DNA from: Bugula neritina
Lineage: Eukaryota; Animalia; Bryozoa
DNA length: 64,000 nucleotides
Direction of reading: 5' to 3'
Assembly: GCA_964035545.1 (NCBI GenBank)
Contig: OZ037767.1
Coordinates: 15,070,998 to 15,134,997 of the forward strand
Shown here: piece by piece, positions 1,938 to 58,315 of the stretch
Position numbering within the stretch: position 1 is the stretch's first letter
How the letters are laid out: every line of letters starts with the position of its first letter
The notes under the pieces: model-generated
Seen by the model: only the letters and a program-made list of their open reading frames with translations
What the model was told of the DNA's origin: nothing
Database searches by the model: none
Made by a program: the position numbers and the translations under genes

Positions 1938-2983
1938 AGTGCAGTTGGTTCTATTATTAGATTAGCATATTGATTATGACTTTTCGATTGCCACCCTGAT
2001 ACTATGAGTAAAATGTACAAGCATACGTGAAAGTATAGATATGATCATAAGTATAAAAATAGGTATAAGTATAAATATAAATATAGGTACAAGTATAAAA
2101 TGAATGATTATATTATTAATAATATTAGTCAGTGATACCTATAACCGTAATGGTTTTTAGACTTACAGTTATCATTAACATTAGCTGAGTAATATGATTA
2201 GTTAAAATAATGGTATTCATTATTATATCATAGTTATAAGTTATAACTCTAGTCTCTAAAGAGCAACAGCAAGTGTAACTGGGATATTCATATTAAATTT
2301 CATATTCACATGGTGCAATGTTTATGTTATGAACTAATTTATTCCTTCAACATTTAACTATAAATATGATTAACACTAACTTTGACCAGCAGTATTACTA
2401 AAAGAAGCGTATTACAAATATAAGATAATAAAATTCTAGTAGTAGGACTAATAGTATTACTAGGTCCAGTATTATTCTTGTTATCTTATTCATCATTCAT
2501 GAGTTATCAAATTTAAAATTACTACTTATTAGCATCAGCATATAAAAAGTAAGATCATTAGGAATAATTATCATGAGGTATGATCTATGATTTGCATTAT
2601 CCATATATAGTTTAATATCAATATGATATATTATTATTGCTGATAGTCTATGTTATAGTTAAATTTATACTTATCTTTACAGTTACCTATAGTAGCACTT
2701 ATTAGTTATTTGTGGTAGCCAAACTAATGTTTAATATTAATAAATTAAACTGAGTATCATAAAAGTGTTACTAAGAATTTTAATTATAATCGTAATGGTG
2801 ATCATATTACTTTATTATAATTATTATATTTTATCATTAATGCTAAACTGAGTTAATGTATATACTTTGAGTTTTACTATTACTCATTATATTTACACTT
2901 ATAGTAAAACTAAATATGTAAAAGTTATACTTATACTATTATTATTCGTATTTCATTAGACTTACATCTAAGATCGCAGTCCT

Positions 2984-3130
2984 ATTACTACTACCACTGA
3001 TACTAGTACTACAACTAGTACTAGTACTACAACTAGTACTAGTACTGCTACTAGTACTAGTACTACTAATAGTACTGTTACTACTACTACTACTAGTACT
3101 ACTACTAGGTCTACTACTGTACCAGTACAA
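2984..3130. repeat. Degenerate (ACT/AGT)n microsatellite
   Basis: Runs of CTACTA/CTAGTA; produces the spurious Ser/Thr-rich ORF 2942-3130. Confidence 0.85.
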
Positions 3131-6100: not shown

Positions 6101-6882
6101 ATAAAAATAAATGGATAAAAATTCCAATCATGGTTTAATGTGCCTATTTTAAGCTGTTAATTTAATTACTATAATATAAGTGCTCAAAATACAACTTTTG
6201 ATTTTCATAATTATGTTTTAATTTAATACAGATACCATAGCATCATATACGGTAGAATCAGTTGTATCTTATTTAATAATAAAGTAACTTTTTGCAGCTT
6301 TCACAGTTATTAATTATTCACTTGTTAGTCTTTGAACTGGGACAATGTTTGAAACTTGAAGTAGGATGAAGTTTGATTTCAGTTACCGCAATGGTATCTG
6401 CAGTCACAATAGGAATACGCATATAACTATGTTTATATTTGTGAAAAATATATAGTCAAAACTAGATAAGGTAATAGTAATTATAATTGGTTTCACTTTT
6501 AATATATTCCTATAAACTGGAAAATAGACAGAAGCATTTAATCATGAAAATAAACCTAGTGGAAGTAAATCAATTCACTAAGTATAGTAAAATATTTACT
6601 ATTCAGTAAGTTTATTTACTTTAGTTAATTGTACTTGATTATTTCTGTCGGTTTTTCAGTTGATTTTTCTACTTTTTGCTATAGCATATCAAACTACCAC
6701 AAAGTCATGCTTCCGTATTACAATTATAAACATAGTGTTCCTGTGTAATGTTATAGTAATGTAATAGTAATATTTGGATCATTGTAAGTATTTCTGTTGT
6801 TGTACTGATTGATAAATATTTTTTAGCTTGCATGGATATTTGCAACGATCAAGATGCCATTTGAACCTGGACTGGAATAAAG

Positions 6883-8247
6883 ATGGCAAATCGAGAAGCT
6901 AGCTACAATTATTCTGCTGAAAGAAACTTGGTAAGCAAAAATAAGCTGCAGCATTAAGCAGTAAGCAATATGACGATGAACTTTGCTTGATTTTGATTGA
7001 CCTTAAAATATCTGGTCACCTTTCACCAACGTGGTCCTGCGCGGGTGGCGGGTGACCTTAAAATGTCTGTTGCACGTAAAATAAATTTTGTGACAGTCAA
7101 AAGTATGCTGATCTTTTTCGTATTTCAGTGCATCGGTGTCTTAGCTTAAGAGCTGAACCCAACAATTATGATCTAAAGCTGTTTTTTACTAGAAAGTGAT
7201 TTTACTGTCTTTCTGATTATTCTTGGTTTTTCAGCTTGATGAATTGAATAAATGGATTTGATTTCGGGTATTATGTAATGGATGAAAGAAATTTTTCTTA
7301 AATTTGTACTGAGCAATTTTTGCTATTGCTATGATGTTTAGTGATAAAATTGCACCCTTAATAACCCTGAAAACTTTCATTACTAGCATTTGTTTATGTT
7401 CATTTTTAGGAAATTAAAATGAAGACACAACTCACCGATGCTATCTCACTGTGCCTGCATGCAGTTTATCTAAAAAGGTACTCCTATTAGCTGGCTCTTG
7501 CCCAATACCTGGTTGTCTCTGTAACTATTTTTTGCTCGCAGATGAGTTTTTTGAACTTGACATTTTATTGATTTTGAAAGTTATAGTGAGCTTTGAACTT
7601 GCTAGCATCGTTTTTTAAAGACTTGCTGCAGTTTTTATCAACATTTTTTAAGTCAATGGTGTTAGTTTGGAAGCTCTCTCACTCCTCTCTCTGTCTCTTT
7701 CTCCCACACCTTCCACTCAATCTCTCTCTCTTTCTCCCCCTCTCTCCCACCCTCCCTCTCTCCCACCCTCCCTCTCTCCCACCCTCCCTCTCTCCCACCC
7801 TCTGTCTCTCCCACCTTCTCTCTCTCCCACTCTCCGTCTCTCCCACCTTCTCTCTCTCCTAACCTTTCTCTCTTCCCTTTTCCACTATCTCTCTGACTCT
7901 CTCCCTTTCTCTCTTCTACCCCATCTCTCTTCCATCCTCTCTCCTAACCTTTCTCTCCCACACCCCCCCCCTCTCCCACTCTCTTTCTCTCTCTAGTTTG
8001 CATGGCTTTACCCAATTTTGGTTTATTTTTTTATCTTGTTTCAGAGTATCCAAAAGGAAAGCTAAAATTTATTTAATATATATTATACCAACTTGAGCTT
8101 TACATATAATATCAAATAAATGCTGTGTTTTGTTAAAACAATGTTTGCAACTTTGTAGTATATTCAAATTCATAATTTATTTGTAGAGTCACACAACAAG
8201 ACACTACTCTGACACACTCACAAGTTGCCACTGATCCAGCAGTATAG
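6883..8247 (+). CDS. Possible small spliced ORF (58 aa), or exons of a non-coding transcript
   Basis: Putative exons 6883-6930, 7410-7477 and 8187-8247 with GT-AG sites join in frame to MANREASYNYSAERNLEIKMKTQLTDAISLCLHAVYLKRVTQQDTTLTHSQVATDPAV*. No recognisable family. Confidence 0.2.
7673..7995. repeat. Polypyrimidine CT-rich tract with ~18-bp unit CTCTCCCACCCTCCCTCT
   Basis: Visible directly; the Leu/Ser/Pro-rich ORFs here are artefacts. Confidence 0.9.
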
Positions 8248-11200
8248 ATGATTGTTTTCTCCACTGGCTATGCTGTCACGCTTTACTGTTGTGGTGTTTG
8301 AAACAAACCAATTGTTTGCCTACGCAGATTAGGGTGAGAAAAAAAGTGAGAAATGAAAGCTGTTTTTAATACCAACTACACTTAGTTTTTATTGAATGAA
8401 AAACAAAGTGAAATCATTAGTTATCCGTTAAATGACTAAATCATTGTTTATAAAGATGAAACACAAATAATCTTATAATATGCTAATGAAATTTGGCTTT
8501 CAAATAGCTTTTTTCTGTATATTTGTTGAGGAAGTTTATCTTCAACAAAACTTCGTAGCTGTTGAATATGTGGAGAGTATTTTATATTGCATAAATTTAT
8601 AGAGTAAAAGGTTCTCATCAAACTTTTACAACTTAGCTCATCGACGGTTTAAAAGTGTGAGTCACCCTTCACACTAGAGTTTTATAAAGTTTTAATGAAT
8701 GTGCAGTATTTTATAAGATATTGTGTGTCTCGTAAATTTAGCTATTTCTACCTTTTCAGTGAGATTGGAGTAAACACACCTCAAAATTCACATCTGGTAT
8801 CACATTGATTTATCGCAAGTCAAAGTACACCTACTAACTCTTCCTTCCCTAATACCTGCTTGCTTTTGCACTTCTACTCATTTCATATACCTAACATTTC
8901 TCTTGCAGATGAATTACATCTTTTAAGTTGTAAAAGCCTTAAATAGCATGAAATTAATGAAGTTTAAACCGTGGCCACACTAACTATTGATGCGTTTATT
9001 GATGGGTTAAATTACACGAAAATATTGTCTCTTTCTTTTTAGTTTCACCTAAAGTATTACATACTATTGATGGAGGCTTTGCTGAAGTTTTTGGGTGATG
9101 ATTTGTCAATAATTTTCCAGAGAAGCTGGCTGGCATCATTATGCAGTTTCCAAATTTCTTTCGGCTTTGCTCTAGTGAAAATGTTGGAAAACAATCAACA
9201 AAAAGGTTTGTACCATAAACGAAGTTATTGTGTGCGTGTTGTCAAAGCATAAAGTGTGCTGGAAATTTTTGGGTTTCTGTTGAGATGCGTTTTTGCTTTT
9301 CCTGCATGAAAAAAGTTCCAGTTTCAGTTAATATCACTAGCGGAGTGCCCACCTATATTTTAAATCATATTGATGCATAAGTTCTTTTTGTAATATTAAA
9401 AGTATAACTTGCTTAATTGCTATTCAATGCCCTTTGAAGTTTCCAACTGTAATTAATTAGTTGATTTGGCAGCATAGTATCGATGATTGATGAAGGCAGC
9501 CGATATAATTATAAGCATAAATATCTATATCTACATGAAGATGTCATTCCCAATGATTGTTATTCTGAAATCAGCTGATTAAGTTATCACAAACTAAACA
9601 TTTTGACCAGCGGCTTGCAATGCAACTTGGTGAAATTTCAGACCTAGATAAATTGAATTTCTTACTGAAAATCGTGAAGGTATTAAAGTTTAAAGTTAAA
9701 GTTTAAAGGGTCATCTCTCTGCGAATTCTAATAGCATGGTGCCAATTAGACTTGAAAAAATTTCAAGGCACTACAAAGCACTAAGCCCATTCTTACAAGT
9801 AGTTTCAAAGTGCACTGGAATTTCAGTTTACTTGTCATTGTATAGAATCCTGATCTACACTATATAGCATTCACTATTGCCTGCTTCTTTTAAGCATCTA
9901 TAATGTATTAACTACAGTTTGCTTTGAGAAGTGAATTTCTACTTGGTATTTTTTCCTTATCATTCCGTTGTTTGCCAGTAGTCTTAATTTAATGGATTTT
10001 CCCTTTTCAAAAGTGGTTGTGACAATCAAAACACATCATGCAGCCTGCAACTACACAATCAGTTAGTAATTTCTTCCATTAAAGTAGCTCTTCTGGTTAC
10101 TCTTGCTCACCTAAAAGCCTGAGCCTCATTCAAATTGCAAGTTTTTAGAGTTGTTAATTTTTCATGCAGTCCTTCATTTTTTTTTTGTTAGGCACAAAAT
10201 TAGTATTCACTAGACCTAATCTTTCATCTGCATGTATGCCTATTGTTTGTTCATTAAAGAAAAACCTCTGCTAAATATTGAACTAATAATGAAAATAAAT
10301 TCCCTGAACTAAAAGTAGCAGTGTGATTTTGGTATTACAATTAGTTGTTAGCATAGAGTCAAGTTATTGACAGGAATTTTCAAATTGAAATGAATGAATT
10401 TCATTGTAAGTCAGCAAGATTTAGTCTAAGTAAACATAGCATTACATTGTGTTTTATTTAGCATTTGCAGAAGGCAACATATATTTTAAGGATTATTGTA
10501 AACTTAAATGTAATTTTAAGTACTTTCCATGTTTGTTATTGTAGATGGTCTTGTTCTTTGGGATGAATGTGACAACTCCTTGTGTCAAGCTTAACTGATT
10601 GACTACTGAATCCCAATCATATGTTTTGCCAAAAAATGTGAAAATGGAGTGCATGTCTACTTTGTTTGAAAAAATATTAAAAATACTTTTGAAACTTCAT
10701 CTAGCCAAACAATACAACAGTTTCATTTCATTAAAAAATATCATTTGCACAAAAATGTATTATGTAATCAAACAATTTCTAGAAAAAAAGTGCTTTCCTC
10801 CAGTTTTGCTAATGAACTAAATTTTTCATTATATGCTTGTCTTTATAATTTTATTAATTGTTTTTTCTGGTGAGTCAATTAAAGTCAATTCAACCTAGAA
10901 AAGTCTGAATTTCAGACTTAATTTCAAGCTAGAATATTCACATTTTTAGGTCTGCGTTTGCAAACATTGTTGTGTTACTTTACTTTTTATATTTTTTGAA
11001 ATAAATATCTTTTTAGCTTGTGCCTATTCATGATTAGAATAGTATAATAATATTTAACTTTTCTTCAATTTCAATAGATGAAAATGTTGATCAGTTGGAG
11101 TATTCAGTTTAGCTGAATTTTACTTGCTTCTGCGAAAACAATCTTTTGGAGTTGTCTGCCCTCTCTTTAGGTAATTTTTTGACCTATGGTCAACGCAATA

Positions 11201-26863: not shown

Positions 26864-27185
26864 GTATATAGTTTTACTCAATAAATTATATATATACACA
26901 TTTTAATTTTCATTAGTTGGATAAATTAGATAAATGTTGGATCACTTTCTCTACAATAGTGTCTACTTCAGCCATAGCCCCATAGCCTACTTCTCCACAG
27001 GCTAGTTTCTTTGAACAGGTGGGTATATAGTTTTACTCAATAAATTATATATATACACATTTTAATTTTCATTAGTTGGATAAATTAGATAAATGTTGGA
27101 TCACTTTCTCTACAATAGTGTCTACTTCAGCCATAGCCCCATAGCCTACTTCTCCACAGGCTAGTTTCTTTGAACAGGTGGGTAT
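26864..27185. repeat. 159-bp tandem duplication of the PPCDC 3' end
   Basis: 26864-27022 repeats at 27023-27181, with GTAT microhomology at the junction. Confidence 0.95.
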
Positions 27186-27951
27186 CTCTATGTGGCCCCA
27201 ACTAATGAGGGTATTTATCTGTGGCCGAGTTATTGGATGCTGTAGCATGAGAGTGTTCATAGCTGGCGCAAATAGTAGAGGTTTCTTAGGATCCCAGGCT
27301 CTCACCACACAAGTCTGTAAGACAACTCCAATAAGTTTTGACACTATCATATCATAGCTCCTACTTAGTAATTTAATAGAGAACATATTTTTACAGTTAT
27401 TTACCAGTAAATTGTCGCACAATCCGTTGGATATCTTTGCTAGGGAATTTGCACTCAAAGGAGCTATAACAAAGATGTCTGCCCATTTTCTAAGCTCTAT
27501 ATGTAGTACATCATCTCCCATTTTCGTCCATGTCTAAAGCAGAAACCATTTGCAAGCTGTTCAACTATGTTTCTATTTAAATATTTTATACAATATGTAG
27601 TTCTGGTGTATATGAAGTGTGGGTGTATATGTAATACAGGGTGAATAAGTTTGTAGTGTGGTTGTATATATGTAGTGTAGGTGAATAGACAGTGCAGGTG
27701 GAATATATATTATAGTTTGAGCATACAAACTGTAAAGGCAGCTGTTTTCTACTCACTTTATATTCATCAGCATCTGTGTAGTACTGCAGCACGTCAGTAG
27801 AATCTTCAAATTGTGTGAAATGTTGAGCGTGCTCAGTTAGAATCACCTTTATCACCGCATCAGGAACTCTGCTTTGCAAAGCAGCTAAAAGAGGTTTGAG
27901 TTTGACTGTAGCTACACTTCCGCAACAACCTATCAGTATTTTAGGAGCCAT
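27072..27951 (-). CDS. PPCDC: Phosphopantothenoylcysteine decarboxylase (CoaC/HAL3 flavoprotein), 3 coding exons
   Basis: Exons 27951-27757, 27533-27405 and 27314-27072. Motifs GSVA, catalytic His in VLHIELRKWAD, APLSANSLAK, CDNLLTC, PAMN and KKLACG. Confidence 0.95.
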
Positions 27952-34977: not shown

Positions 34978-36930
34978 AATCACCTTTGCAACATAATTCA
35001 ATAATTGCATGGTCAAGCAGAATAAACTACAATTAACAGCAACAACAGTGTAATAGTTGCGTAGAAAAGTTGTACTGCAAAAAACTAAAAGAATGCAAAA
35101 TCTATAAATGTGTGCTACCAAGTAAATGCTGAACAGACATCATGAAATAGTGTACGAAATACAAACTATTAAACTTACCTGTTGATCTAATGCAGCCAAA
35201 ACCTTAAGCTTAGAGTAGTGGAATGGTGCTGTTCGATGTTGATATGCTACAAGTAGCTAAGATGACTCAAATTCTTGCCTTTAGGAGTAAGAGGCCTCAG
35301 CTCAGTTTCAACAAAACTTCCAATAATCTCAACGGATGCGCTCAATTAGGAGCCACAACAAAGCACACCCATGTCATTTTAGTAAACTCTAAAAAATGAA
35401 CGAAAATAAAACTGTTAGAGAGTAAACAGAGAAACATATAGTGATGGGGGAAAAACCTGTCAGCAAAGGTTAGATACACTCATAGCCATAACACGAAGAA
35501 AAAGATAATGAATAACAACCTATTCAAGATGACACAAGAAACCAAACAAATTTCTTTGACTAAAAATATAATTAAATACTATATTACTTGGCAAAAAATA
35601 TTTGTTTTGAACAACGTATTATTGGGAAGAATTGCCAGTGTCTTAAATTTTGAGATTAAAATTTCTGCCTTATAGCGGAAATAGAGAGGCAATCAATAGT
35701 GTACAAAACGTGTTTTCAGTCATTGGCTGTTGACTAAATTGACAAAGTTAAAGAAAGCTTCCATATCATTATTTATTTTGTTCTCAAGTGTGTGGTTACA
35801 GTTTCATGAGTCAGAAATATAATTATTTGAGATATGAAATCAAATGTAGTCAAAAGAGTGTCCTACAATTTAAAATGTAGTAATAGAGCTTTGACAATAA
35901 TTTCTTCTGCTAAGTAAAACAGGTACCATTATGTGCTACTTATCTTTTAGAGATGAACATCAAGGATGTTGAAAACAAAATAGTTGTAAATTACAGCAAA
36001 TACCTTTCTACTTACCTAACCAGAGAAAATAAGTTTTCAACCTTGCATGCACTCAGCTGGTTTTCAATGTTTGGATCAGTGACATCTTTATAACTGATAG
36101 CAGCATTATGTGATAGCTTTAGGAATTGTTACCTTAAATCTAAATTATATAAAACAAGAAGTGCAAAAATATGGCATTAGTACTCATTGCACAATACAAA
36201 CTTGCTAGAGTAGCTAATCTAGCATCACATTAATTTAAGAAAGACAAAATTTTATTACTGTTCACAAATGATGAATATTAAAATTTGAATAATTAGACAA
36301 ATTAACAATGATATTGATGCTACTTCAAACATTACCAATGGTAAACACCAAAATACTAATAGGAATAGTCATGTTAACATCAATTAGAAAAGTAAAGATA
36401 ATTTGAAAATGAGACAGTTTATAGGTCTAACTCTTATAGTTGACAAGCAATTACAGGGCAGTCATATTGATGTAGGCTACCCTCAAAATGTAGCACTTTA
36501 AAAATATTAAAAAGACAGCACATATAAGAACATAATCTTAAAAATAGGCATATGTGACACCTATATTTTGATTAACAAAGAAATCTTCTTTACTTTATTA
36601 ATATAGCTCATATAATGGTATTCTGTCTTAGTATGTTATTTTAATACTTGAAATCTAATCAGCTACAGAAAAGTACTTCAATTCAAAGGCCTTCATAATT
36701 ATTCTTTAGTTTGCTATTTAAATAGACAGTAAGGTTGATGAATAAAATAAAAGTTAGTAAAGTAAAAACTAAATAAATTGAGAATAATATCTCCACTCTA
36801 AGGTTATAATCCTTATAAATTAACATTTTAATACTCCTGTTATCCTTAGGTATAGTTGTTAGCAATTTAACTATGAGCTCGAAGCCAAATGTCAGTATCA
36901 GCATCCCCATTACATTGACTAAGACTGACT

Positions 36931-37039
36931 AGTAGTAGTAGGTGGATGGTCCTAGGACAACCCTTCCCCCGTCGAGTCTTTGACTCTCCGGTGTCAGGGA
37001 TTGTCCTAGGACGCATCCACCTACTACTACTCTATTAGT
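36931..37039 (+). repeat. Left TIR (109 bp, self-complementary)
   Basis: Exact reverse complement of 51317-51425; begins (AGT)3. Confidence 0.98.
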
Positions 37040-37220
37040 TTTTTTTATTAAGTTTTAGAAATTGTGCATTTTAGGACAGTTTATTATTTTATTGTCCTAG
37101 AATTGTACATTTTTTAGGGTAAACATTAACTTTTATTTTAAAATGTATTTACTCGTTACTATTAGTAATAGAAATAAATTATTATATTCTTAACGTATAA
37201 TAATTTATTATTAATAGCAT

Positions 37221-38117
37221 TTAAACGTTATAACTTGAAAATACTGGTAAAGATTCACTAGATTCTACTATATCTCCATCACTCGTTGATAATATTAATT
37301 TATTACCCGTTGCGTCTTGTAATTTAGGAATAGCGTGATTATTTATATTATTTATTGTAATAATATCGGTAATATTTATATTGGTTTCTACAATATTACC
37401 ATCACTCGAAAGCATTAATAATTTACCTCCGATTGACGGTTGTATTTTATTCATAGCAAAATTATTTATATTACTAGTTGTAACGACATCGCTAACGCTT
37501 AAGCTACTTTCCGCAATATTACCCGAAGTAGTTGAAACGGTTAATTTTTCATTCGCGGGTTGTATTTTATTTATAGCGAAATTATTTATATTACTAGTCG
37601 TAACAACATCGCTAACGCTTAAGCTACTATCTACAATATTACCCGTATTAGTTGATACGGTTAATTTTTCAGTTGGGTCTCGTATAAGAGGTACGGCGTA
37701 ATTAGATACATTAGTTTTTGTAACGACATCATCAACTTTTAAATTACTATCTATAACGCGTCCATCATCAGTTGATATAGTTAATTGGTTAATAGGGTTT
37801 TGTATAAGAGGTACGGCGTAATTAGATACATTAGTTTTTGTAACGACATCATCAACTTTTAAATTACTATCTATAACGCGTCCATCATCAGTTGATATAG
37901 TTAACTGATTAATAGGGTTTTGTATTTTAGGCATACTCGTATCATCAACGTATTTTTTTGTAGCCGCGTCTTGATCGTCAGCCGGATCAATGACTCTAGA
38001 TATTTTATTTTCCCCCATATCTAGCGTACCCGTAAGAGTACTACTACCGTTTATTAAAACGAATTTTTTCGTATTTATTTCCGTTTTTCCACTTCCTCCG
38101 AATTTATAAACACTCAT
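37221..38117 (-). CDS. Putative fibre/spike protein with six ~40-aa repeats
   Basis: LDMGENKISRVIDPADDQDAATKKYVD resembles a tail-fibre/YadA-stalk neck motif. It is followed by six 40-aa beta-rich repeats (120-bp period). Confidence 0.7.
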   Translation of the reverse strand: MSVYKFGGSGKTEINTKKFVLINGSSTLTGTLDMGENKISRVIDPADDQDAATKKYVDDTSMPKIQNPINQLTISTDDGRVIDSNLKVDDVVTKTNVSNYAVPLIQNPINQLTISTDDGRVIDSNLKVDDVVTKTNVSNYAVPLIRDPTEKLTVSTNTGNIVDSSLSVSDVVTTSNINNFAINKIQPANEKLTVSTTSGNIAESSLSVSDVVTTSNINNFAMNKIQPSIGGKLLMLSSDGNIVETNINITDIITINNINNHAIPKLQDATGNKLILSTSDGDIVESSESLPVFSSYNV

Positions 38118-38120
38118 TTA

Positions 38121-38879
38121 TTACGGTATATAAAATTCGTCTAACCCGTGTCTATACCTACCATTATTTTTTGAGGAAGAAAGATCTAAAGTAATAAAGC
38201 CGTGAGGTTTTTGCCATCCTTTATAACAAAAGTTTTTAAATTCGTTTAACGTTAAATCTCCGTTTACGTGATCTTGATATATATGATTTAAATTTTTTCC
38301 ATCTTGAGGAAATAAGCAAATAAAATTAGCGTTTTCTCGAATAGTGTTTCTAGGCAGCTTAAAATAATTTTGCGACAAATAAAAGCAATCGACATTATTG
38401 TGTCGTCCTCTTACGTAATAACTTTCACAAGTTTTTTGTTTTTCCAACATTAAATCATCGAATATTATTAAATTTTTATTATTAGCGTCTAATTTGCTAG
38501 GGTCATAAACGTCGTCACTAGATTCAATAAATTCGGCGTCTATATTACCGTTACCCTTACTATTTTTTAAAACACGAGTTACATTTATACCCGAATTTAT
38601 TATCGCGTCACTATTTTTAAAAAAATTTAAAATTTCTTCTTTAGTTAATTTACGTTCAAAAGCCTTCCTCATATTTATATATTCGGGTTGAGAAAGGCTT
38701 TTACCGTAAATCATAAGTTTATCGTAATCGAGCCAATTAGGTTGTAATAATAAATTACAAAGTAAAGTAGTTTTACCGCATCCAGATTTTCCAACGATAA
38801 GACCTCTTATGCTTTTAGGAAGTAAAGGATTATTATTACGATTAATTTCGTTTTTCCACGAAAGATTTTCTATTTCCAT
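38121..38879 (-). CDS. A32/FtsK-like DNA packaging ATPase
   Basis: Walker A GKSGCGKT, Walker B LIIFDD, RGRH motif, LSQ and IRENA. Confidence 0.95.
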   Translation of the reverse strand: MEIENLSWKNEINRNNNPLLPKSIRGLIVGKSGCGKTTLLCNLLLQPNWLDYDKLMIYGKSLSQPEYINMRKAFERKLTKEEILNFFKNSDAIINSGINVTRVLKNSKGNGNIDAEFIESSDDVYDPSKLDANNKNLIIFDDLMLEKQKTCESYYVRGRHNNVDCFYLSQNYFKLPRNTIRENANFICLFPQDGKNLNHIYQDHVNGDLTLNEFKNFCYKGWQKPHGFITLDLSSSKNNGRYRHGLDEFYIP

Positions 38880-38894
38880 TTATTATAATAAATG
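38877..38894. promoter_or_regulatory. Palindromic bidirectional initiator CATTTATTATAATAAATG
   Basis: A perfect 18-bp palindrome whose ends are the start codons of the divergent ATPase and PLA2-integrase ORFs. Function is inferred. Confidence 0.65.
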
Positions 38895-48400: not shown

Positions 48401-49134
48401 AAAATATACGAAATAGAGTTAACGTTAAATTAGTTACTAGCGAAAGCGAAGCTAAAAAGCTAACTAATCAGCCTAACTTTAAAAACTTCACTATATTTTC
48501 TGAAAATTTAATAGCCGTTCATATGAATGTAGTAAAATTAAAATTTGACAAGCCTATATATTTAGGTGCGGCTATATTAGACATTAGTAAAACTCTAATA
48601 TATGACTTTCATTATGGTTATATTAAACCAAAATATAATAAAAATGCGCAATTATTATTTACGGACACGGACAGTCTAATGTACCACGTAAAAACGAAAA
48701 ATTTTTATGAGGATATATTACCAGACATTACTAGAATATTTGACACGAGTAATTATCCTAACAATCACTCGTTACCAACGGGTATAAATAAAAAAGTAAT
48801 AGGTATGTTTAAAGACGAAGCCGGCGGTAAACAAATTACGGAATTTGTAGGCCTAAGAGCTAAATTATACTCTTACAAGATGGATGGTATGGAAGAGAAA
48901 AAATGTAAGGGTATTAATAAGACTACTCGTAATAATTGTATAACATTTGACGATTATAAAGAGTGTTTATTAACACGACGAGATCAGCTTAGAACGATGA
49001 ACGTTTTGAGAAGTCATAAGCATACAATGTACGCTGAAACAATAAATAAAGTAGCTCTGTCGGCCGAGGATGATAAGAGAATTATACTCGAAGACGGTAT
49101 AACTACAGTCCCTTACGGTTATATAAATGATTAA
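45454..49134 (+). CDS. polB: Protein-primed family B DNA polymerase with N-terminal terminal-protein region
   Basis: ExoI IYADFE, ExoII HNLSGYD, RKGVFPY, ExoIII YMKVDV, YLDANNLYG, KLMNNSVFGK and FTDTDS. Also a Rho-N-like N-terminus, NKCF...HY (OTU-like), a Zn finger and an EndoVII-like insert CYIC...DHCH...AHNNCN. Confidence 0.97.
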   Translation: MEFNTKITVKALKALAKERGLKRYSQLKKAELIRLLSPMDEPVPNIGQAPLIPTPVIKIMREIFTQTTRNIKKWVKGIVKPIAKIVNPIKDKIMALYNQPKLKEQAAKGWFQTYEIKGLPKYDIDSFSKLVKLNVIKLLKPTIKVKIFMYCEMEKINVRTGETIVEIMPFTSNIETILESTNINEIYDEIIERIKENFASLNAKGSSWTFKAIKKMEISINKYQPLNGSSWIDLPKEIKLKKAVINPKNEDNKCFMWAILMSIHTPKNHPERISNYKEYVNKFSWEGVEFPATKKSIDAFEEVNFDFGINVFTWDGKTINLWKKTKNQGKIINLFYISDDKKSHYAYIKNLNKLLGSQINKRVSAKHICVNCMNSFRSNESLKKHQNWCLTNDGVTTVFPKIENKIKFQSSHYCRSMRVPFTIYADFECFTKPIYGCKPNFKESYTNQYQQHEPSGFGYYIVSITGECNYRSYTKEAEDEDIGEQFIRLLEFDIKNLYKKHKFAKPMRITNSEQESFQLAENCYICEEKLGDDRVRDHCHLTRDYRGAAHNNCNLNYKIPKFYPIFIHNLSGYDAHLFIKNLGGEPSCIPNTEEKYISFSKKLLVDEFTNNKGEKIKVTREIRFLDSYKFMSSSLASLVANLKRDDFKHLQKHYIDCQKHYAEKQLDLLLRKGVFPYDYFNNVNVLNEKCLPPKEKFYSSLTESNISDEDYEHAQKVWREFNMKTFKDYHDLYMKVDVLQLADVFENFRNVCLKHYKLDPAWYYTAPGLSWDAMLKTTKLELDPITDVDQLLFFEKAIRGGVSMISHRYAKANNKYMENYNASEPSSYITYLDANNLYGWAMSKNLPVGNFKWMTEKRCKDLEKSLNFPPSFLEVDLEYSKKLHDSHKDYPFCPERIIINKVEKLVPNLNNKKNYVIHYKALKQCLMYGLKLTKIHKGITFNESNKLEKYIKLNTELRTLAKSDFEKDFFKLMNNSVFGKTMENIRNRVNVKLVTSESEAKKLTNQPNFKNFTIFSENLIAVHMNVVKLKFDKPIYLGAAILDISKTLIYDFHYGYIKPKYNKNAQLLFTDTDSLMYHVKTKNFYEDILPDITRIFDTSNYPNNHSLPTGINKKVIGMFKDEAGGKQITEFVGLRAKLYSYKMDGMEEKKCKGINKTTRNNCITFDDYKECLLTRRDQLRTMNVLRSHKHTMYAETINKVALSAEDDKRIILEDGITTVPYGYIND

Positions 49135-49540
49135 AATAAAAAATATAAAATTACAAAATAAAGCTCTCTCGAATATTGAATTAGAGTTTGCGATTAAAAA
49201 GTTAAAAATACCATTTTTTAGAGGAGTATTTTCAAGAAACGATTTACCCAATAAACCGCGTAAAAAAGAGTGCGGTATATTAAATTTAGACAATTTAATG
49301 GGTAACGGTACTCATTGGGTAGCTTGGTATAAAAATAACAATAAAAAATATTATTTCGATAGTTTCGGATTACATCCACCGCTAGAAATAATGAAATATT
49401 TAAAACCGCCTATATTTTATAACACGGAACAAGTACAAGAATTCGGTACCGTTATATGCGGACACTTGTGTTTATATTGGCTTAAAGAAATGTCTAAACG
49501 CGAGTCGCCTCAATTAATTATAAATAAATTACTTATATAA
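49127..49540 (+). CDS. Adenain/Ulp1-like maturation cysteine protease
   Basis: GTHWVA (His), YFDSFG (Asp) and Q...CGHLC (Gln/Cys). Confidence 0.95.
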   Translation: MIKIKNIKLQNKALSNIELEFAIKKLKIPFFRGVFSRNDLPNKPRKKECGILNLDNLMGNGTHWVAWYKNNNKKYYFDSFGLHPPLEIMKYLKPPIFYNTEQVQEFGTVICGHLCLYWLKEMSKRESPQLIINKLLI

Positions 49541-50053
49541 ATGACTTCAGTTTATATTTTTGGAAATTCGGCTAATATAATAAATGAACAACCGTATATT
49601 ACGAATATTATAATTCCGTCAGAATTTACGTATTATTTAGGAGGATTTACTACTACATTAATTAAAGATTTTTTAGTCGATGAACTGATTGAAATAACGG
49701 ATATATTAATACAATTTTACGGTGAACAAGCTCATAATACTAAAAAACTTTATTGGACTGATAAGCGAATAGGCTTACATATTAGAAATAGTACTGAATT
49801 ATTTAATCCATCCAATGAAAATACTTTTTATAATATAAGCGGTAATGAACACAATCTTCCGTTTAGCGAAATAAACGCTAATAAAATTATTGAAGCTAAT
49901 AAAAACTTTAAATTAACAATAGCGTTATCAAAAAATTATCCTAGTCATAAACCCAGTGACGTAATTTTAATCGACACTCCCGCTAGCGAAATAACCGATG
50001 CGGCATTACCCTTTCATTACGTATTAGTAAAACTTTATTATAATTATAAATGA
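49541..50053 (+). CDS. Tandem paralogue 1, beta-rich, putative receptor-binding/decoration protein
   Basis: Shares YWTDK, ISGxEHNxP and YPSHKP...DTP..EIT..ALPF with the next two ORFs. Function is inferred. Confidence 0.8.
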   Translation: MTSVYIFGNSANIINEQPYITNIIIPSEFTYYLGGFTTTLIKDFLVDELIEITDILIQFYGEQAHNTKKLYWTDKRIGLHIRNSTELFNPSNENTFYNISGNEHNLPFSEINANKIIEANKNFKLTIALSKNYPSHKPSDVILIDTPASEITDAALPFHYVLVKLYYNYK

Positions 50054-50583
50054 ATTCAGTATATATTTTTGGAAATTCGGCTAAAGCCAATATAATAAAT
50101 GAAAAACCGTATATTACGGATATTATAATTCCATCATATTTTTTATTTGATGGTAGATTTGATAAATTTGAAGGAATATTAATTAGAGATTTTTTAGTCG
50201 ATGAACCGATTGAAATAACAAATATATTAGTACATTTTTACGGTGAACAAGTTCATAATACTAAAGAACTTTATTGGACTGATAAACAATTAAGCTTAGA
50301 AATTAGAAATAGCGCTGACACATTTAAGTATGGTGCAGTCACTGAAAATATTTTTTCTTATGATATAAGCGGTGCTGAACATAATGTTCCGTTTAGCGAA
50401 ATAAACGCTAATAAAATTATTGAAGCTAATAAAAACTTTTCACTATTATTAACATTATCAAAAACTTATCCTAGTCATAAACCTAGTAATGTTATTTTAA
50501 CCGATACTCCCAATAATGAAATAACCAATACAGCATTACCTTTTCATTACGTAATAGTAAAACTTTATTATAATTATAAATGA
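50050..50583 (+). CDS. Tandem paralogue 2
   Basis: Same motifs; ATGA overlap with paralogue 1. Confidence 0.8.
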   Translation: MNSVYIFGNSAKANIINEKPYITDIIIPSYFLFDGRFDKFEGILIRDFLVDEPIEITNILVHFYGEQVHNTKELYWTDKQLSLEIRNSADTFKYGAVTENIFSYDISGAEHNVPFSEINANKIIEANKNFSLLLTLSKTYPSHKPSNVILTDTPNNEITNTALPFHYVIVKLYYNYK

Positions 50584-51104
50584 ATATTTATAAATTTAGT
50601 AAAGTCGATATAACGACTAATAAAGCGTTTATTTCAGGTCTTATACATAATAATAGATTTTATTATTACGAAAATATTAATAGCTTTACGGTAGATTTAA
50701 TTAACGATTATTTAGTAGATAAACCTATAAAAATAACGCACGCGTTAATACAATTTTATGGTGACCATTTTACTTGGGCTAAAAAAAGAGTATTATATTG
50801 GACCGATAAAAAAATAGGTTTACATATTCGTAATAGCGTAAATCCTTTTGATGAATCTAAAGAAAATTTATTTTATACTATTAGCGGTGCCGAACATAAT
50901 GTTCCGTATAGTAAAATAAATATTAATAAAACCGTTAACGCTAATAATAATTTTTCTTTTACAATAGCTCTTTCGAGTGATTATCCAAGTCATAAACCCA
51001 ATGACGTAGTTTTAATTGATACTCCCGCTAGCGAAATAACCGATACAGCATTACCTTTTTTTTACGTATATTTTAAACTTTATTATAATAGCATTCATGA
51101 ATAA
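50580..51104 (+). CDS. Tandem paralogue 3
   Basis: Same motifs with a more divergent N-half; ATGA overlap with paralogue 2. Confidence 0.8.
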   Translation: MNIYKFSKVDITTNKAFISGLIHNNRFYYYENINSFTVDLINDYLVDKPIKITHALIQFYGDHFTWAKKRVLYWTDKKIGLHIRNSVNPFDESKENLFYTISGAEHNVPYSKININKTVNANNNFSFTIALSSDYPSHKPNDVVLIDTPASEITDTALPFFYVYFKLYYNSIHE

Positions 51105-51316
51105 TCTACTAATAATTATTTTTTTTCTTAAAATAAATAATTTTACACTACTAATAAAATAATAAAAAAGTAAATTATTGTTATAATATTCTTCAAAAAA
51201 AAGTGAGCTAAAACCATCCACCCTAAAAATATTTTTTTTATTTTTAAAAATAAATATTTTTCTAAATAATATTATACTACTTTTTTATAATATTATACTA
51301 CTTTTTTATAATATTT

Positions 51317-51425
51317 ACTAATAGAGTAGTAGTAGGTGGATGCGTCCTAGGACAATCCCTGACACCGGAGAGTCAAAGACTCGACGGGGGAAGGGTTGTC
51401 CTAGGACCATCCACCTACTACTACT
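51317..51425 (-). repeat. Right TIR (109 bp)
   Basis: Exact reverse complement of 36931-37039; followed by TSD CTGACT. Confidence 0.98.
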
Positions 51426-51544
51426 CTGACTTTATAACCCTCAAGCTGTGGCACTCAATTTCTATAAGTAGTAACTAATAACAAATATAAAATTATTTAT
51501 TTGCTACTGATAGTGATAATAATAATAATTAAAAATAATAATAT

Positions 51545-54505
51545 GATCCATTAAAATAGAACTAATAAAGCCAACGACGTTAATGGTATGTCTAACTAAA
51601 CATGGCATGTCTCGTCTGGCAGTGGGTATGTGGAGGGCCAGGCAACCTACGGCCGTCAACCCGTTAATGGCACAACTAAAAGAAGATACTCAAGAGAAGA
51701 CAACAAAGTTGTCATGAAATGCTGCTTCAAAAGTACACCCAAATTGAGAGGTTATAGAAAAACAATGTATGAGCTCTGTAGACCTGGATCAAAGAATTAT
51801 TTAAAAAGAATGTGCAAACGCTGGAAAACAGAGGAGAGTTTAACATCAGCGAATAGAGACTAGCGGATTAAGCAAGAACTATGAAGAAACACAAGCATTT
51901 TATGGAAGAAGAACTCCATAAGATTGAAGAAGGAACCTTGCAAGAACTAGGCACATCAATTGGTGAAGAAGATAATGAAGAGCTAAATTTGCAAATAGAG
52001 GATGTTATAGTACAACATGAGATAGCATATAAATCAGCCATGAGAATTTTAAGAGTACCTAGTTCAGAGGTAGAAAAAGTGTTAGTAGAAAAATGATAAA
52101 TGAGCATAACAAACTATCTAATGATCGACCAACACTAAGAGCCCTTAGGCACATTGAGAGGGTCAAATTACTACAGGCAGTAAAACAGATTAGTGATGTG
52201 CTAAACTGTGTTGAGATTATTAATACCATTGAGCTTAATAACACCACCATGGCTTGTGCGAAAAATAGTAACAGAACAAGTGTGTAACAAAAAGGAAAAA
52301 GAAAAACTGACAATGTACAAGTATGGAAAATACGACTGCAGAAGAAATAAAAAGAAATTAGATCAGACTTAAGTAAAATAGCAGAGTGAAAAAGTAGAGC
52401 TTACAATGATTCATTGAGAAGAATGGTTGAAGAAAAATATAGGATAAAGAACAAAGAGTGTGGTGTAGTGATTGAAAAACTGAAGCAAAACCTGAGAGCT
52501 GTAAGCCAGAAGATAAACAGATATACAGAATGAGTTGATCAATATAATCAGAACACAATGTTTACAATGATAAGCGCTTTTATCAAGAATTACGAGGAAA
52601 TGAATACGTACATCTAAAGAGGCACCTGACAAGGAAATCAAAAGCATTCTGATAAAATATATGGGGTCAGCCAACTAAAAATAATACCAATGCAGAATGA
52701 CTAAATAAAGTTAGCAACAAATTGGAGCATATGTAAAGACAAGGAAATTAGATCTTAGAAACGATGCAAACAACTGGAATAGCAATTAATGTCATAAGGT
52801 TGATAAGAAAAAGCATGAAACCTGGAAAACACAACTGAAATACCTGGAAGAAAAGATAGGAGAAATAAAGATCAAACTAAGAATTTTCCAAGGAGACTCT
52901 TTATCTCTATCACTTTTCTCCAACTACCGATTCGCATGTCAGAAGCAGCTCAATGATGCAAATTTCGACGAGACAGAAAACAAACCATCTCCTATATGTG
53001 GATGACCTGAAGGTAAATAGGAAATCAAAGTGGGAACTGGAAGCTTTGGTAAACACTGCCGGGATCTTCACAAGGAATATAGAAATGAAATTTGGATTAA
53101 AAAATGTGCCACACTGGTTATGAGAAAGGGAAAGAAAATTAAGGACACAGGAATCAGTTTGCCTGATGAACAGGTAATCAAAGATCTGGGTGAGAAGCCG
53201 TATAAATATCTAGGAGTTCTTGAGATTGATGGAATACAAATATATGAAATGAAAAATAAGATCAAGGAGTACTACAAACAAATAAGAAAAGTTCTGGATT
53301 CAAAACTGAATGGTGAGAACACAATCAAAGCAATAAACACATGGGCAGTAACAGCAGTGCATTACACAGCTAGAATACTTGACTGAACTGTTTCATGAGC
53401 TAAAAAATATAGACTGAAAGACAAGGAAGCTAATGACAACAAACCGTGCACCCTATCCGAGAGCAGATGTAGGCAGGCTGTATTTTAGCAGAAGGGAAGG
53501 CGGTAGAAGAATGTTGTCAACTGAAAAATGCATAAAGATTGAAAACTGCGCACGTCAGACTACATAAATATAACATAGACTGATAGAAACACCACACTGA
53601 ATACCTTCCTAAAAGACAGAACAGCGGTAGAACTAAATAATGATAACGTGATAGAAAGAACTGATGAGTGTAAAGAAAAGCTTCACGTGGTCAATACATC
53701 AAAATGGTGGAAGACATGAAAGCATTTTCCTGGAACTGGTTGAAGTATGGTTGGCTGAAAAAGGAAACAGAAGGACTGCTGACAGCTGCGCAAAATCAAC
53801 TATTCACTACTAGAAATTATAAAGTGGCTATGATGAGAGAACAGGGTAGCAAGAAGTGTGGAATGTGTAACGCAAGAGACAAAACTTCGATGCACGTATT
53901 GAGTGAGTTTGAGAAGGTAGCAGAAGGAGAATATAAGAAAAAACACAACCTTTTGGCATTGATAATTTCAATAGTAGTTGTGTGAACTTCGTGGGTTTCA
54001 GAAAAGTAAGAATTGGTACGGCCATCAAGCAGAATAAGTACTGGAAAATGATAATGTGAAAACCTTGTAAGATTTTAACATACACACTGACGTAGTCATC
54101 AAAGTTAGGAGACCCGATATATTAGTAGTTGACAAGCATAATGCTGAAACAACGATAATTGATATCACAGTCCCTGTTAACTACAGAGTAAAAGAAAAAA
54201 ATTCGAAAAGTTAGGAAAATATCAGAATTTAGCACTAGAATAAACCCGCCTTTGGAAAACATCAAAAAAGTCATCCCGTTGTAACTGGAGCCTTTGGAGC
54301 TTTATACAAGATTGTAGACTGGCTGACACTACTTGGAGTAGCTGAAAACAAATGCTCATTAATTCAGCAGACACCCTTACTAGGATCAGGATAAGCTCAC
54401 ATCCTGAGGAAAGTTCTAGCCATTTCAGCCTAGTATAACTAGGCCAATGGTAAAAGGTTACACCAGCTAAAAAACTACGGTCAATCAACAATAATAATAA
54501 TAATA
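51545..54505 (+). mobile_element. Decayed R4/Dong-like non-LTR retrotransposon, near full extent
   Basis: 5' remnant RRYSREDNKVVMKCCFKS...GYRK, then the same RT/CCHC/RLE remnants as 1-1937. (TAA)n tracts flank both ends. Boundaries are approximate. Confidence 0.8.
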
Positions 54506-55550
54506 GTGCAGTTGGTTCTATTATTAGATTAGCATATCGATTATGACTTTTCGATTGCCACCCTGATACTATGAGTAAAATGTACAAGCATACGTGAAAG
54601 TATAGATATGATCATAAGTATAAAAATAGGTATAAGTATAAATATAAATATAGGTACAAGTATAAAACGAATGATTATATTATTAATAATATTAGTCAGT
54701 GATACCTATAACCGTAATGGTTTTTAGACTTACAGTTATCATTAACATTAGCTGAGTAATATGATTAGTTAAAATAATGGTATTCATTATCATATCATAG
54801 TTATAAGTTATAACTCTAGTCTCTAAAGAGCAACAGCAAGTGTAATTGGGATATTCATATTAAATTTCATATTCACATAGTGAAATGTTTATGTTATGAA
54901 CTAATTTATTCCTTCAACATTTAACTATAAATATGATTAACACTAACTTTGACCAGCAGTATTACTAAAAGAAGCGTATTACAAATATAAGATAATAAAA
55001 TTCTAGTAGTAGGACTAATAGTATTACTAGGTCCAGTATTATTCTTGTTATCTTATTCATCATTCATGAGTTATCAAATTTAAAATTACTACTTATTAGC
55101 ATCAGCATATAAAAAGTAAGATCATTAGGAATAATTGTCATGAGGTATGATCTATGATTTGCATTATTCATATATAGTTTAATATCAATATGATATATTA
55201 TTATTGCTGATAGTCTATGTTATAGTTAAATTTATACTTATCTTTACAGTTACCTATAGTAGCACTTATTAGTTATTTGTGGTAGCCAAACTAATGTTTA
55301 ATATTAATAAATTAAACTGAGTATCATAAAAGTGTTACTAAGAATTTTAATTATAATCGTAATGGTGATCATATTACTTTATTATAATTAGTATATTTTA
55401 TCATTAATGCTAAACTGAGTTAATGTATATACTTTGAGTTTTACTATTACTCATTATATTTACACTTATAGTAAAACTAAATATGTAAAAGTTATACTTA
55501 TACTATTATTATTCGTATTTCATTAGACTTACATCTAAGATCGCAGTCCT

Positions 55551-55700
55551 ATTACTACTACCACTGATACTAGTACTACAACTAGTACTAGTACTGCTAC
55601 TAGTACTAGTACTACTACTACTACTACTACTACTACTAATAGTACTGTTACTACTACTACTACTAGTACTACTACTAGGTCTACTACTGTACCAGTACAA
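55551..55700. repeat. Degenerate (ACT/AGT)n microsatellite, copy B
   Basis: Length variant of 2984-3130. Confidence 0.85.
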
Positions 55701-58315
55701 CTACAAACTTTGAAAATAACTGCAAGAAAGGTATGACTTACTCTTTTTCTTAGTCTTACTGTGACTCTCAGTCGTAATGTAAAATAAAATTGTGAACTGT
55801 AAAGTTAAACCCAAGGCTGAAATTTATTTAATTAAATTTAGACAATCTGAATCATTGGCTCAATCCTTGAGTTTGACTATTACTATTATTATTAGTGTTA
55901 CGATTGTGATTATCATTGGCATTATGCCATTATGATTATCATTATGATTGTAATTGTGGTAATTCTAACAATAATTATAATCATAAATTAAAAGGTAATG
56001 ATTAATGATAATTATTTTCATTTTGTAATCATAATGATAATCATAATGATGTAAATTTTGATGTAAAACCAAAATACTAAAATTAAAACTAAAAGTAAAA
56101 GTTATAAAATTAAATGATAAAATATTATAATGATAATTATTATATTTATTATATTATTATTGAATATATTATTTCATTAGAAAATAGGTTGCAGCTTAGC
56201 ATGATTAAAATTCAGTAAAAATTAGTTTACCAACAGCAAACATGCATGCGTCTTGTCAACATTCAATTCGTAGTGTCATAGCGAAGCCAGATTACTGGTA
56301 GTACGACTACTAGAACTACTACTACTAGTGATGGATTACAGATCCTTGGCGATTTTAGCTGTGAGTGACCTTCACCTCACATTCTCGTCATGTGCGCGGC
56401 ATTAGACTAAGTAGAGGGTATGAAGCACTGAGCTGGAAAAGAAAGAATATATTTTAATTATAGGTAATACTAATAGTAATATAATTTATGGTAATATATA
56501 GGTAATATTATTGAGTTCATTGGTATGGAGTATAGACCTATCACTGATAGTATCAGTATCAACTACCACTTACGTACTACTTCAACTTATAACTTACCTT
56601 CAACTCAAACTCAAACTGAAACTGCTTGGAATCATTTGTCTTTGATCATATTGGCATTGTCATTGTGATTGTAATAACTATTAATATTTTTAGTTCAACA
56701 TCAATGCCGAACATATTGTAATAACTAATAAGATAATCATAAGGTTGATATATTTTGCTAATACTAATACTAATAGTTATAGTAATAGTTATAGTAATTC
56801 AGTGTCACTCTCACTCTGGTGGAGTGAGACTCAGACTTAGAGTTAGAGACAGAGTGAGTCCGAGTAAGTCTGAGTGTTGGGAATAGTAATAGTCATATAA
56901 ATTTAAATTATGTTTACTTATTTCTAGCAATCACAATGGCAATAGTTATAGTAACTTTCACTTACTCTTAAATCATTGAACCTGAACTAAAAGTAAAATT
57001 AAGCATTATGATTATCATTATGATTATACCTATGATTTTATTATGTTTAAATTAAAAATCAATATCATGATAATATCATAGTGATAGACATATTATTGAT
57101 AAATGATAATATAAAAGTAATTTGATAAATTATACATTGATTTTGAATTAAGGTGATACTGATACTAGACCGGTACTGAAAGTGATAGTAATACTAATAG
57201 TAATAGTATTAGTCATATAAATTTAAGTTATATTTACTCATTACCGGCAATCACAATGGCAATAGTAACTTAAACTGTAACAGTAATGGTATGGGTATGT
57301 TTGAAATTGTCACTATCAGTATTGCTATGAATCAAAATATAATGCTATCATACCAATAATTTAAAATAATATTACAAAGCTTCAGTAGCAACTTTTACTT
57401 GTACCAGTTTGGAATTTTGAATTATACATATTCTTAGTTAAAGTCTTCAAGTTTATTGTCAAAATGAACTTGAAATTAAAGACTTAGTAGTAAAAATTAA
57501 ACTAAGACTGACTGTAAGTGACTAAGATTAGAAATAAGTAATTTTAAGTATCGATTTAGTATTTTTCTTACTCTTTGTCTTAAAATTGACTTTTATTTTG
57601 CACCTACTCCTGGTCAATGATTCTTTTTTCTATTTATATTACTATTGCTATTAGTATAATTGACTTAAATTTAATAATAGATATGATTATATCTTAATAA
57701 ATGTGATATTTGATTTTATGAATAGTAATTCGAAAACTCTTTGGTATTATTTATTTTTGATCATTGTAGTTATTATCATTATATTTGTATAATAATTATG
57801 ATTATCAAATTCAATATCGATATTTGTATTATGGTATGGATATCTGCCTCCATCCCATGTTCTGTTTTGCAGTGCCTTTTTACATTCACGTCTAGGTTCA
57901 CATTGCGATGGTCATACTGATAGCACTTGGGGATAGTGAGGAGCATAATGATTATCACTAATATTAAGATTATCGTTATTAGGATTTAGAATAATTTAAT
58001 AAACAAGCAACTTAAAACAAATGTTTTTACTAATATACATATTAATTACTAATATAAATATACTACTATGAATATTATAATTATTATACTTTACAATTCA
58101 AAGTAAGATAATCATAATACGAACTGGTAAAACTAAATATAAAGTAAATGTAATAATACTAATAGTAGTTATCCATTCCCCTTTGGTTTCACATACTAAT
58201 AATTGGAAACCTCTGTCCTAATATTATTTCTATTAATATTGCTCAAAGTTTGATCCCTATTTAATTTTATAGTTCACTCACCAGCTACATAATTTTATTA
58301 AAATACATGTGGTAT

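Follow-up and report, generated by a model that had tools for sequence, protein, structure and literature searches.

Poxvirus-like start motifs suggest a provirophage-like mode of expression in a Polinton of the bryozoan Bugula neritina

The stretch of 64,000 nt analysed here (the window, whose coordinates are used throughout) belongs to the genome of the bryozoan Bugula neritina (assembly GCA_964035545.1, contig OZ037767.1) and carries a complete alpha-type Polinton at 36931-51425, which is 14,495 bp long and has a G+C content of 30.7%. Fourteen of its 16 open reading frames (ORFs) start within ATAAATG. We consider it probable (roughly 0.6) that a co-infecting large DNA virus of the cytoplasm supplies the RNA polymerase that transcribes the element, and that host RNA polymerase II (Pol II) does not; the element probably works like a provirophage. 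A preliminary description of the window had called it virophage-like. This holds insofar as the element is integrated and lacks an RNA polymerase of its own, but not for the capsid, which is of the Polinton type (PF21738). The animal host assumed there is borne out by a nearby intron-bearing host gene, which best matches Bugula neritina and has the same N-terminus.

The motif lies over the start codons at 38117, 38879, 38892, 40398, 41208, 41541, 42810, 43581, 45117, 45454, 49127, 49541, 50050 and 50580, on both strands, exactly as first described. The comparison with internal ATGs under control of AT content, which the preliminary description had proposed, gave a clear result: ATAA precedes 14/16 ORF starts and only 6/316 other ATGs of the element (Fisher p 2.6e-18), 33/1867 ATGs of the flanks and 14/561 non-start ATGs in a context of at least 80% AT. 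When the 30 nt upstream of the starts were shuffled 2000 times, TAA-ATG arose on average at 1.1 of the 14 starts and at 6 at most. Since the enrichment exceeds what AT content produces in the flank, AT-rich-context and shuffle controls, it favours a viral polymerase. At 42810 and 49541 only, as had been noted before, the TAA is simply the stop codon of the upstream gene, and at 38117 and 41208 the first TAA of TAATAAATG is that of an upstream stop. The motifs of 49127, 50050 and 50580 are embedded in the coding sequence of the gene before. Two gene pairs diverge from start codons separated by 12 nt, and there the motif serves both strands; one gap is part of an 18-bp palindrome (38877-38894) that includes both start codons (38879/38892). 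The retention of the motif in coding DNA at three genes and its double use in the 12-nt gaps are further points in favour of transcription by a helper virus. Four same-strand neighbour pairs are butt-joined or 3 nt apart. The ORF at 45130 is an exception, starting with TATAAAAAA-ATG, or at 45160 with TATAAT-ATG. Introns, of which the preliminary description had seen none, need not be assumed: no ORF is interrupted, and alignments to relatives begin at the N-terminus for most core proteins.

The motif proved to be the 3' end of a unit of about 25 nt, composed of an A-tract, a T-tract, a mixed spacer and TATA(A)TAAATG. The unit ending in TATATAAATG at 45430-45456 (+) may serve as an example of this promoter-like layout, which is on average common to the 14 motif starts. 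At positions -20 to -18, 28/39 nucleotides were A (shuffle mean 15), and at -16 to -11, 49/78 were T (shuffle mean 30); none of 5000 shuffles reached either value, the context of 50580 having been left out as a near copy of 50050. The same fixed windows in 121 starts of related elements gave 224 A (shuffle maximum 188) and 327 T (maximum 286). That this bipartite layout holds both in the element and in its relatives again argues for a helper polymerase. It resembles the layout of poxvirus post-replicative promoters. Vaccinia late promoters have TAAAT(G) over the start codon with T 10 nt upstream, in intermediate promoters TAAA is preceded, 15-19 nt upstream, by an AT-rich stretch (PMC11980589), and slippage gives rise to poly(A) leaders (PMC5690424). 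The T and A tracts lie at similar distances, whereas the Bugula element has an additional conserved TATA(A) before TAAATG. In a fish poxvirus TAAATG is marked at many conserved genes (PMC4542343), and late genes of African swine fever virus combine a TATA initiator with very short leaders (PMC7163114). The baculovirus-type motif TAAG was tried and rejected; it was scattered, occurring within 100 nt of 5/14 starts at no fixed distance.

The element showed no sign of a host core promoter or of a transcription system of its own. A combination of upstream TATA box, initiator and 5' untranslated region was found at 0/14 starts, the initiator consensus used being that of insects, which may not be that of a bryozoan; a far-upstream TATA box was likewise present at 0/14. 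In Pol II promoters a TATA box at -8 would place the RNA start inside the ORF. To read TATATAAA in this way is contradicted by the conserved N-termini and by the next methionine, which lies at residue 19 or beyond (at least 19) in 14/14 motif genes. Trans-splicing was rejected as well, as there was no YAG in -12 to -1 at the 14 starts and a splice acceptor at 0/14. The earlier statement that no RNA polymerase is encoded was upheld by Pfam (16/16 ORFs) and PHROGs (12/16 ORFs). In the same searches the element ORFs gave no match to TBP, TFIIB or VLTF3 either, nor did the 23 proteins of another scan match any of these or a polymerase; 21 of them were accessory ORFs of relatives, 20 of which had been chosen from 71 candidates.

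Loci found by capsid and PolB searches were sorted into three classes, after removal of duplicates (L088, L089, L102) and of L109, which had too few ORFs. Class A is the close clade, with capsid proteins 41-59% identical and 161 distinct orthologous starts from 65 of 82 loci. Class B comprises 8 ant-type loci with 38 ORFs, and class C 13 environmental Polinton-like contigs with 90 ORFs. An initial count over all 87 loci had found T-A2-6-ATG (T, two to six A, ATG) at 122/165 starts and 165/4532 internal ATGs. In class A the 25 nt before the start codon had an AT content of 0.87, compared to 0.61 in coding DNA; T-A2-6-ATG was present at 121/161 starts (shuffle mean 27, maximum 44), strict TAA-ATG at 52/161 and TCAGT at 0/161. 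Class B showed no AT island (0.60 upstream, 0.56 in coding DNA), T-A2-6-ATG at only 2/38 starts, TCAGT at 13/38 and an upstream TATA box at 8/38 (shuffle maximum 3). The proposed survey of the motif in related Polintons was thus positive for the close clade and negative for its ant sister clade. In class C, AT content was 0.85 upstream and 0.67 in coding DNA. Here T-A2-6-ATG (20/90) did not rise above the shuffle maximum of 26, and the mimivirus late motif (consensus from PMC11464507) occurred at 27/90 (shuffle maximum 15). In a PolB tree of 22 rows, with broken copies left out and an assumed root, the Bugula element joined class A (support 98/95) as sister to two class B rows (99/99), with class C outside. 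The close clade keeps the unit while the ant clade shows TATA and TCAGT signals instead, and this contrast favours the helper polymerase; it supports the view that the ant sister clade gives a picture of host-polymerase promoters in such elements. The start-proximal trait looks ancestral because the outgroup Polinton-like viruses also have AT-rich starts. The pattern is suggestive of an ancestral AT unit that was sharpened to a pox-like form in class A and given up for host promoters in the ant branch. Among the ant-type loci themselves (L083-L087, L097, L099, L106) most copies have a TATAAA box ahead of the ATPase gene, and TCAGT precedes several genes; the L083 capsid clusters with Monomorium proteins.

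A scan of viral contigs for the start pattern yielded 23 loci, 8 of them named as giant-virus bins. After L108 had been included and the matched site taken out of the count, 6/23 showed an excess of T-A2-6-ATG (uncorrected p up to 0.05). One candidate giant-virus contig, L117, encodes a stand-alone C-terminal piece of RPB1 and TFIIB, and has TAA-ATG at 8/13 other ORFs (1.2 expected) and at 5/10 new ORFs on its extension. Such starts on a contig with RPB1 and TFIIB are another argument for a viral polymerase. Because some candidate giant-virus contigs, this one included, use the pattern, it is not unique to poxviruses. Of the poxvirus-type initiator first described, the vaccinia-like start and its A/T layout therefore remain, but it does not point to poxviruses alone, and the helper may be a giant virus of another kind. 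Environmental large-virus contigs that often start genes at T-A2-6-ATG were L117/L132, L118, L124, L111, L129 and L108.

If a helper polymerase is at work, each gene would begin at a compact poxvirus-style promoter, and transcription would start in the A-run just before the ATG. The mRNAs would have almost no templated leader and perhaps a poly(A) head made by slippage. Like mavirus, the element would be largely silent while integrated, and infection of the cell by a compatible virus would prompt it to make virions.

Alternatively, nuclear transcription by host Pol II might proceed from AT-rich promoters without TATA box or yield long read-through RNAs, and TAA-ATG might be a translation device of a compact genome, offering at each start an A-rich context or an in-frame stop codon for guarding or re-initiation. 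The close packing of the four same-strand pairs would suit this explanation, as would the A found at -3 in most relatives (105/161 purine). Moreover, animal polintons have been reported to be expressed with no helper named, namely coral polintoviruses in ordinary colonies (PMC11131425), a fish beta-adintovirus (PMC8502044, section 12) and Mavericks of insect cell lines in which no other virus was detected (PMC5803895). Nevertheless we regard Pol II as unlikely. It leaves unexplained the ordered A-tract, T-tract and spacer, the divergent starts that have no upstream gene and the retention of the motif in coding DNA, and the ant clade has ordinary Pol II signals without such a unit. A promoter of giant-virus type might also be a relic, inherited from free Polinton-like ancestors in an element which now depends on host read-through and in which helper-driven expression is rare or lost. 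The AT-rich starts of the outgroup agree with such an origin. However, the strict form is present at 14/14 genes, even at lineage-specific ones that none of 87 related loci has, and the copy has kept its repeats perfect and its ORFs intact; these features speak for recent selection and make a relic quite improbable. Equally hard to credit is a supply of polymerase or initiation factors in trans from a resident element, be it a giant virus that has become endogenous, a linear plasmid of the cytoplasm or another, TBP- or TFIIB-bearing sister Polinton. A TBP-like gene does occur among MELD virus genes (PMC8502044) and yeast linear elements make 5' poly(A) leaders, but the searches described above found neither these factors nor a polymerase subunit among the 16 ORFs and the 23 scanned proteins, and a box at -8 used with Pol II geometry would again set the start inside the ORF.

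Several observations weigh against transcription by a helper virus. The A-run is 3-6 nt long in most relatives, with the strict form at fewer than half of the starts, and such a run is also an ordinary A-rich start context of invertebrates. The A and T windows were chosen after the element's own profile had been viewed and were then applied to the relatives. The mimivirus late consensus and TCTA, the late promoter motif of the CroV type, each occurred at 1/14 starts of the element, which is the shuffle level. The class sizes overstate independence, since many of the 65 close loci are related copies and there are 8 ant loci, and the tree left a third ant-type row, L099, without a position. Among the virus loci only 6/23 show the start pattern, and 22/23 had been selected by the pattern scan. 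The insect initiator need not be the bryozoan one. One host gene start was readable in the window; it lacks the motif, yet has T at -3 like the element, so the proposed check against host starts was favourable in one respect only and T at -3 alone cannot separate the two. The reports of polinton expression in ordinary coral colonies and in fish belong here too. Finally, no helper virus emerged from the scan of viral contigs. Public contigs (six of 17 runs; RNA origin guessed) bridge 40363 onward (X3, X4, X6), 42716-43201 (X3) and 38699-38957 (X4), some of them coming from diverged copies with insertions or deletions; they were counted neither for nor against. The same applies to their ends and joints: 0/18 loose ends were poly(A) at a start, and 0/14 listed joints were GT..AG.

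The element was first placed at 37221-51104, which lies within it; its true ends are slightly wider. By direct reading of the sequence it is flanked by a target-site duplication, CTGACT, at 36925-36930 and 51426-51431, and the empty insertion site is joined in one public contig (joint 36924-51426). The terminal inverted repeats are 109 bp long and perfect (36931-37039, +, starting with AGTAGTAG; 51317-51425, -). Each of them forms a near-perfect though imperfect palindrome or hairpin of about 99 nt (36931-37029, 51327-51425; -39.5 kcal/mol). Terminal palindromes have been reported from protist elements, preferentially those without pPolB; the Bugula element has both. Fifteen ORFs cover 90.6% of its length. 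Public contigs contain many variants of this Polinton at 85-99% identity, consistent with a multi-copy family. Hairpin terminators were considered and dropped: two hairpins were found, both at 3' ends, and five shuffles gave 0-2.

On the reverse strand the element encodes a 298-aa repeat-rich protein (37221-38117, start in TAATAAATG), a likely fibre with weak tail-fibre PHROG matches, and an A32-type packaging ATPase with Walker motifs (38121-38879; PF04665). The forward strand follows with an in-frame fusion of a PLA2X-type protein and an rve integrase with chromodomain (38892-40256; PF18930, PF08398, PF00665, PF00385). The longest spacer (40257-40397) contains short tandem repeats of the GGACACAAA type. 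Next come a 268-aa conserved, DUF8207-like Polinton protein, probably of the virion core (40398-41204), whose predicted fold matches a bracovirus DUF8207 protein (E 2e-7), a 103-aa basic protein, likewise a likely core protein (41208-41519), and the double jelly-roll major capsid protein (41541-42809; PF21738, E 1e-57). A 252-aa conserved protein (42810-43568) has homologues in 28/87 loci and no Pfam match; its size and synteny suggest a minor capsid protein (penton). It is followed by a 189-aa conserved protein with G-x-G sites, likely core or membrane-active (43581-44150). A 159-aa two-helix membrane protein, putatively SLATT-like, with 5 close homologues (44638-45117, -), and an 88-aa ORF (45130-45396, +) precede the protein-primed-type DNA polymerase B (45454-49134, +), which has 1226 aa, an EndoVII-like insert and its catalytic motifs. 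The forward strand ends with an adenain-type maturation protease (49127-49540; weak PF00770, His/Asp/Cys motifs) and three tandem paralogous beta-sandwich proteins of 170, 177 and 174 aa (49541-51104), probably fibre heads. For the 177-aa member a beta-sandwich was predicted, and fold searches gave weak beta-sandwich matches only. No family was found for four further small ORFs. The ORF at 44292 (86 aa) had no homologue across the 87 loci searched and may be spurious.

The element thus shows the features of a Polinton/Maverick (alpha adintovirus): PolB with intact motifs, rve integrase, terminal inverted repeats, a 6-bp target duplication, double jelly-roll capsid, A32 ATPase, protease (a weak profile match) and PLA2X (PF08398), a marker of the alpha virion module (PMC8502044). 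Its sole capsid family match was PF21738, with no virophage-type major capsid protein, and the named capsid relatives were scallop (bivalve) and bryozoan proteins. By gene content it is to be classed as a Polinton, outside the virophage taxon of mavirus and Sputnik. A search of a phage collection and a scan of viral contigs with the ATPase gave no match.

Some features of gene content deserve separate mention. PLA2X and integrase are a single ORF in the Bugula element. In seven relatives chosen by eye as otherwise unbroken (L005, L010, L024, L047, L051, L056, L081) the integrase is encoded in the -1 frame after an A-run and lacks a start codon of its own close by, which suggests programmed frameshifting or polymerase slippage as in Gag-Pol. 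An automatic frame count in 28 loci, many of them decayed, assigned 13 to -1, 9 to the same frame (including the misassigned L047) and 6 to +1. The region 44150-45450 appears to be variable cargo, as other copies seem to have different sequence there; it contains the SLATT-like gene, a 16-pair hairpin (44609-44645) and an orphan TATATAAATG at 44516 ahead of a 3-codon ORF. Two close relatives have a gene for DUF2738, which we take to be a giant-virus single-strand binding protein (L005:11330-11977, L082:988-1752); the only non-self match in the viral contigs (L108:8893-9720) adjoins a D5-type primase-helicase. Near a decayed Polinton copy, L066:1623-2279 (-) is a matrixin-type metalloprotease ORF, possibly cargo, with its start in TATAATAA-ATG.

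In the flanking DNA, 27072-27951 (-) is a host phosphopantothenoylcysteine decarboxylase gene with two GT-AG introns, and a repeat of its 3' end follows closely downstream at about 26900-27030. The outer flanks (about 1-8600 and 52570-64000) are a direct duplication with 92-100% identity in blocks of 200-300 nt at spacings of 52.6 and 55.4 kb. A further element at 58314-61179 has inverted arms of about 880 nt (98-99% complementary) around a 1.1-kb core.

With alpha adintoviruses and animal Mavericks-Polintons (Starrett et al. 2021, PMC8502044) the element shares PolB, chromodomain integrase, A32 ATPase, capsid, protease, PLA2X, terminal repeats and an animal host; it adds the promoter unit of giant-virus type and the in-frame PLA2X-integrase fusion. 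In the main text of that paper neither "promoter" nor "helper" occurs; its section 12 describes virions co-purified from baculovirus-infected insect cells. Mavirus and the EMALE provirophages of Cafeteria, which depend on helper late promoters (10.1101/2025.10.09.676808, 10.1101/2022.07.28.501842), are alike in integration, rve integrase, lack of a polymerase and one motif before most genes, whereas the Bugula element has a Polinton-type capsid, an animal host and TAAATG over the start. The entomopoxvirus-associated Polinton-like viruses of Barth et al. (10.1101/2023.10.16.562556) are likewise small animal-associated dsDNA elements proposed to parasitise a large cytoplasmic virus, but their capsids are highly diverged and they come from occlusion bodies, while the Bugula element is a canonical integrated Polinton; neither "transcript" nor "motif" occurs in the preprint. 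For vertebrate Mavericks, seen as hypothetical provirophages, activation by large DNA viruses, possibly iridoviruses, has been suggested (Barreat and Katzourakis 2021, PMC8097293), as a possibility derived from host range and with no Maverick promoter analysis in the available text. The available part of PMC11071308 contains nothing on transcription. A literature search confined largely to the main texts of openly accessible papers found no paper analysing animal Polinton promoters; "polinton" combined with "TAAATG" returned one unrelated paper only.

The expression of animal Polintons and the apparent absence of their virions are standing questions (10.64898/2026.06.19.733378, PMC8097293). 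The difference from the ant clade suggests that a single virus family has two strategies of expression, and we tentatively extend it to the proposal that an entire clade of canonical Polintons from aquatic invertebrates consists of provirophages, inherited parasites of large DNA viruses of the cytoplasm, which may protect animal colonies, while the insect branch escaped to host Pol II. In the literature surveyed, provirophage defence has been reported from protists only. The 25-nt unit makes the mode of expression cheap to test. If this proposal is correct, it would explain the rarity of virions from such elements, and start-codon architecture alone would tell which animal Polintons need a helper and hint at giant viruses not yet seen in bryozoans and other invertebrates.

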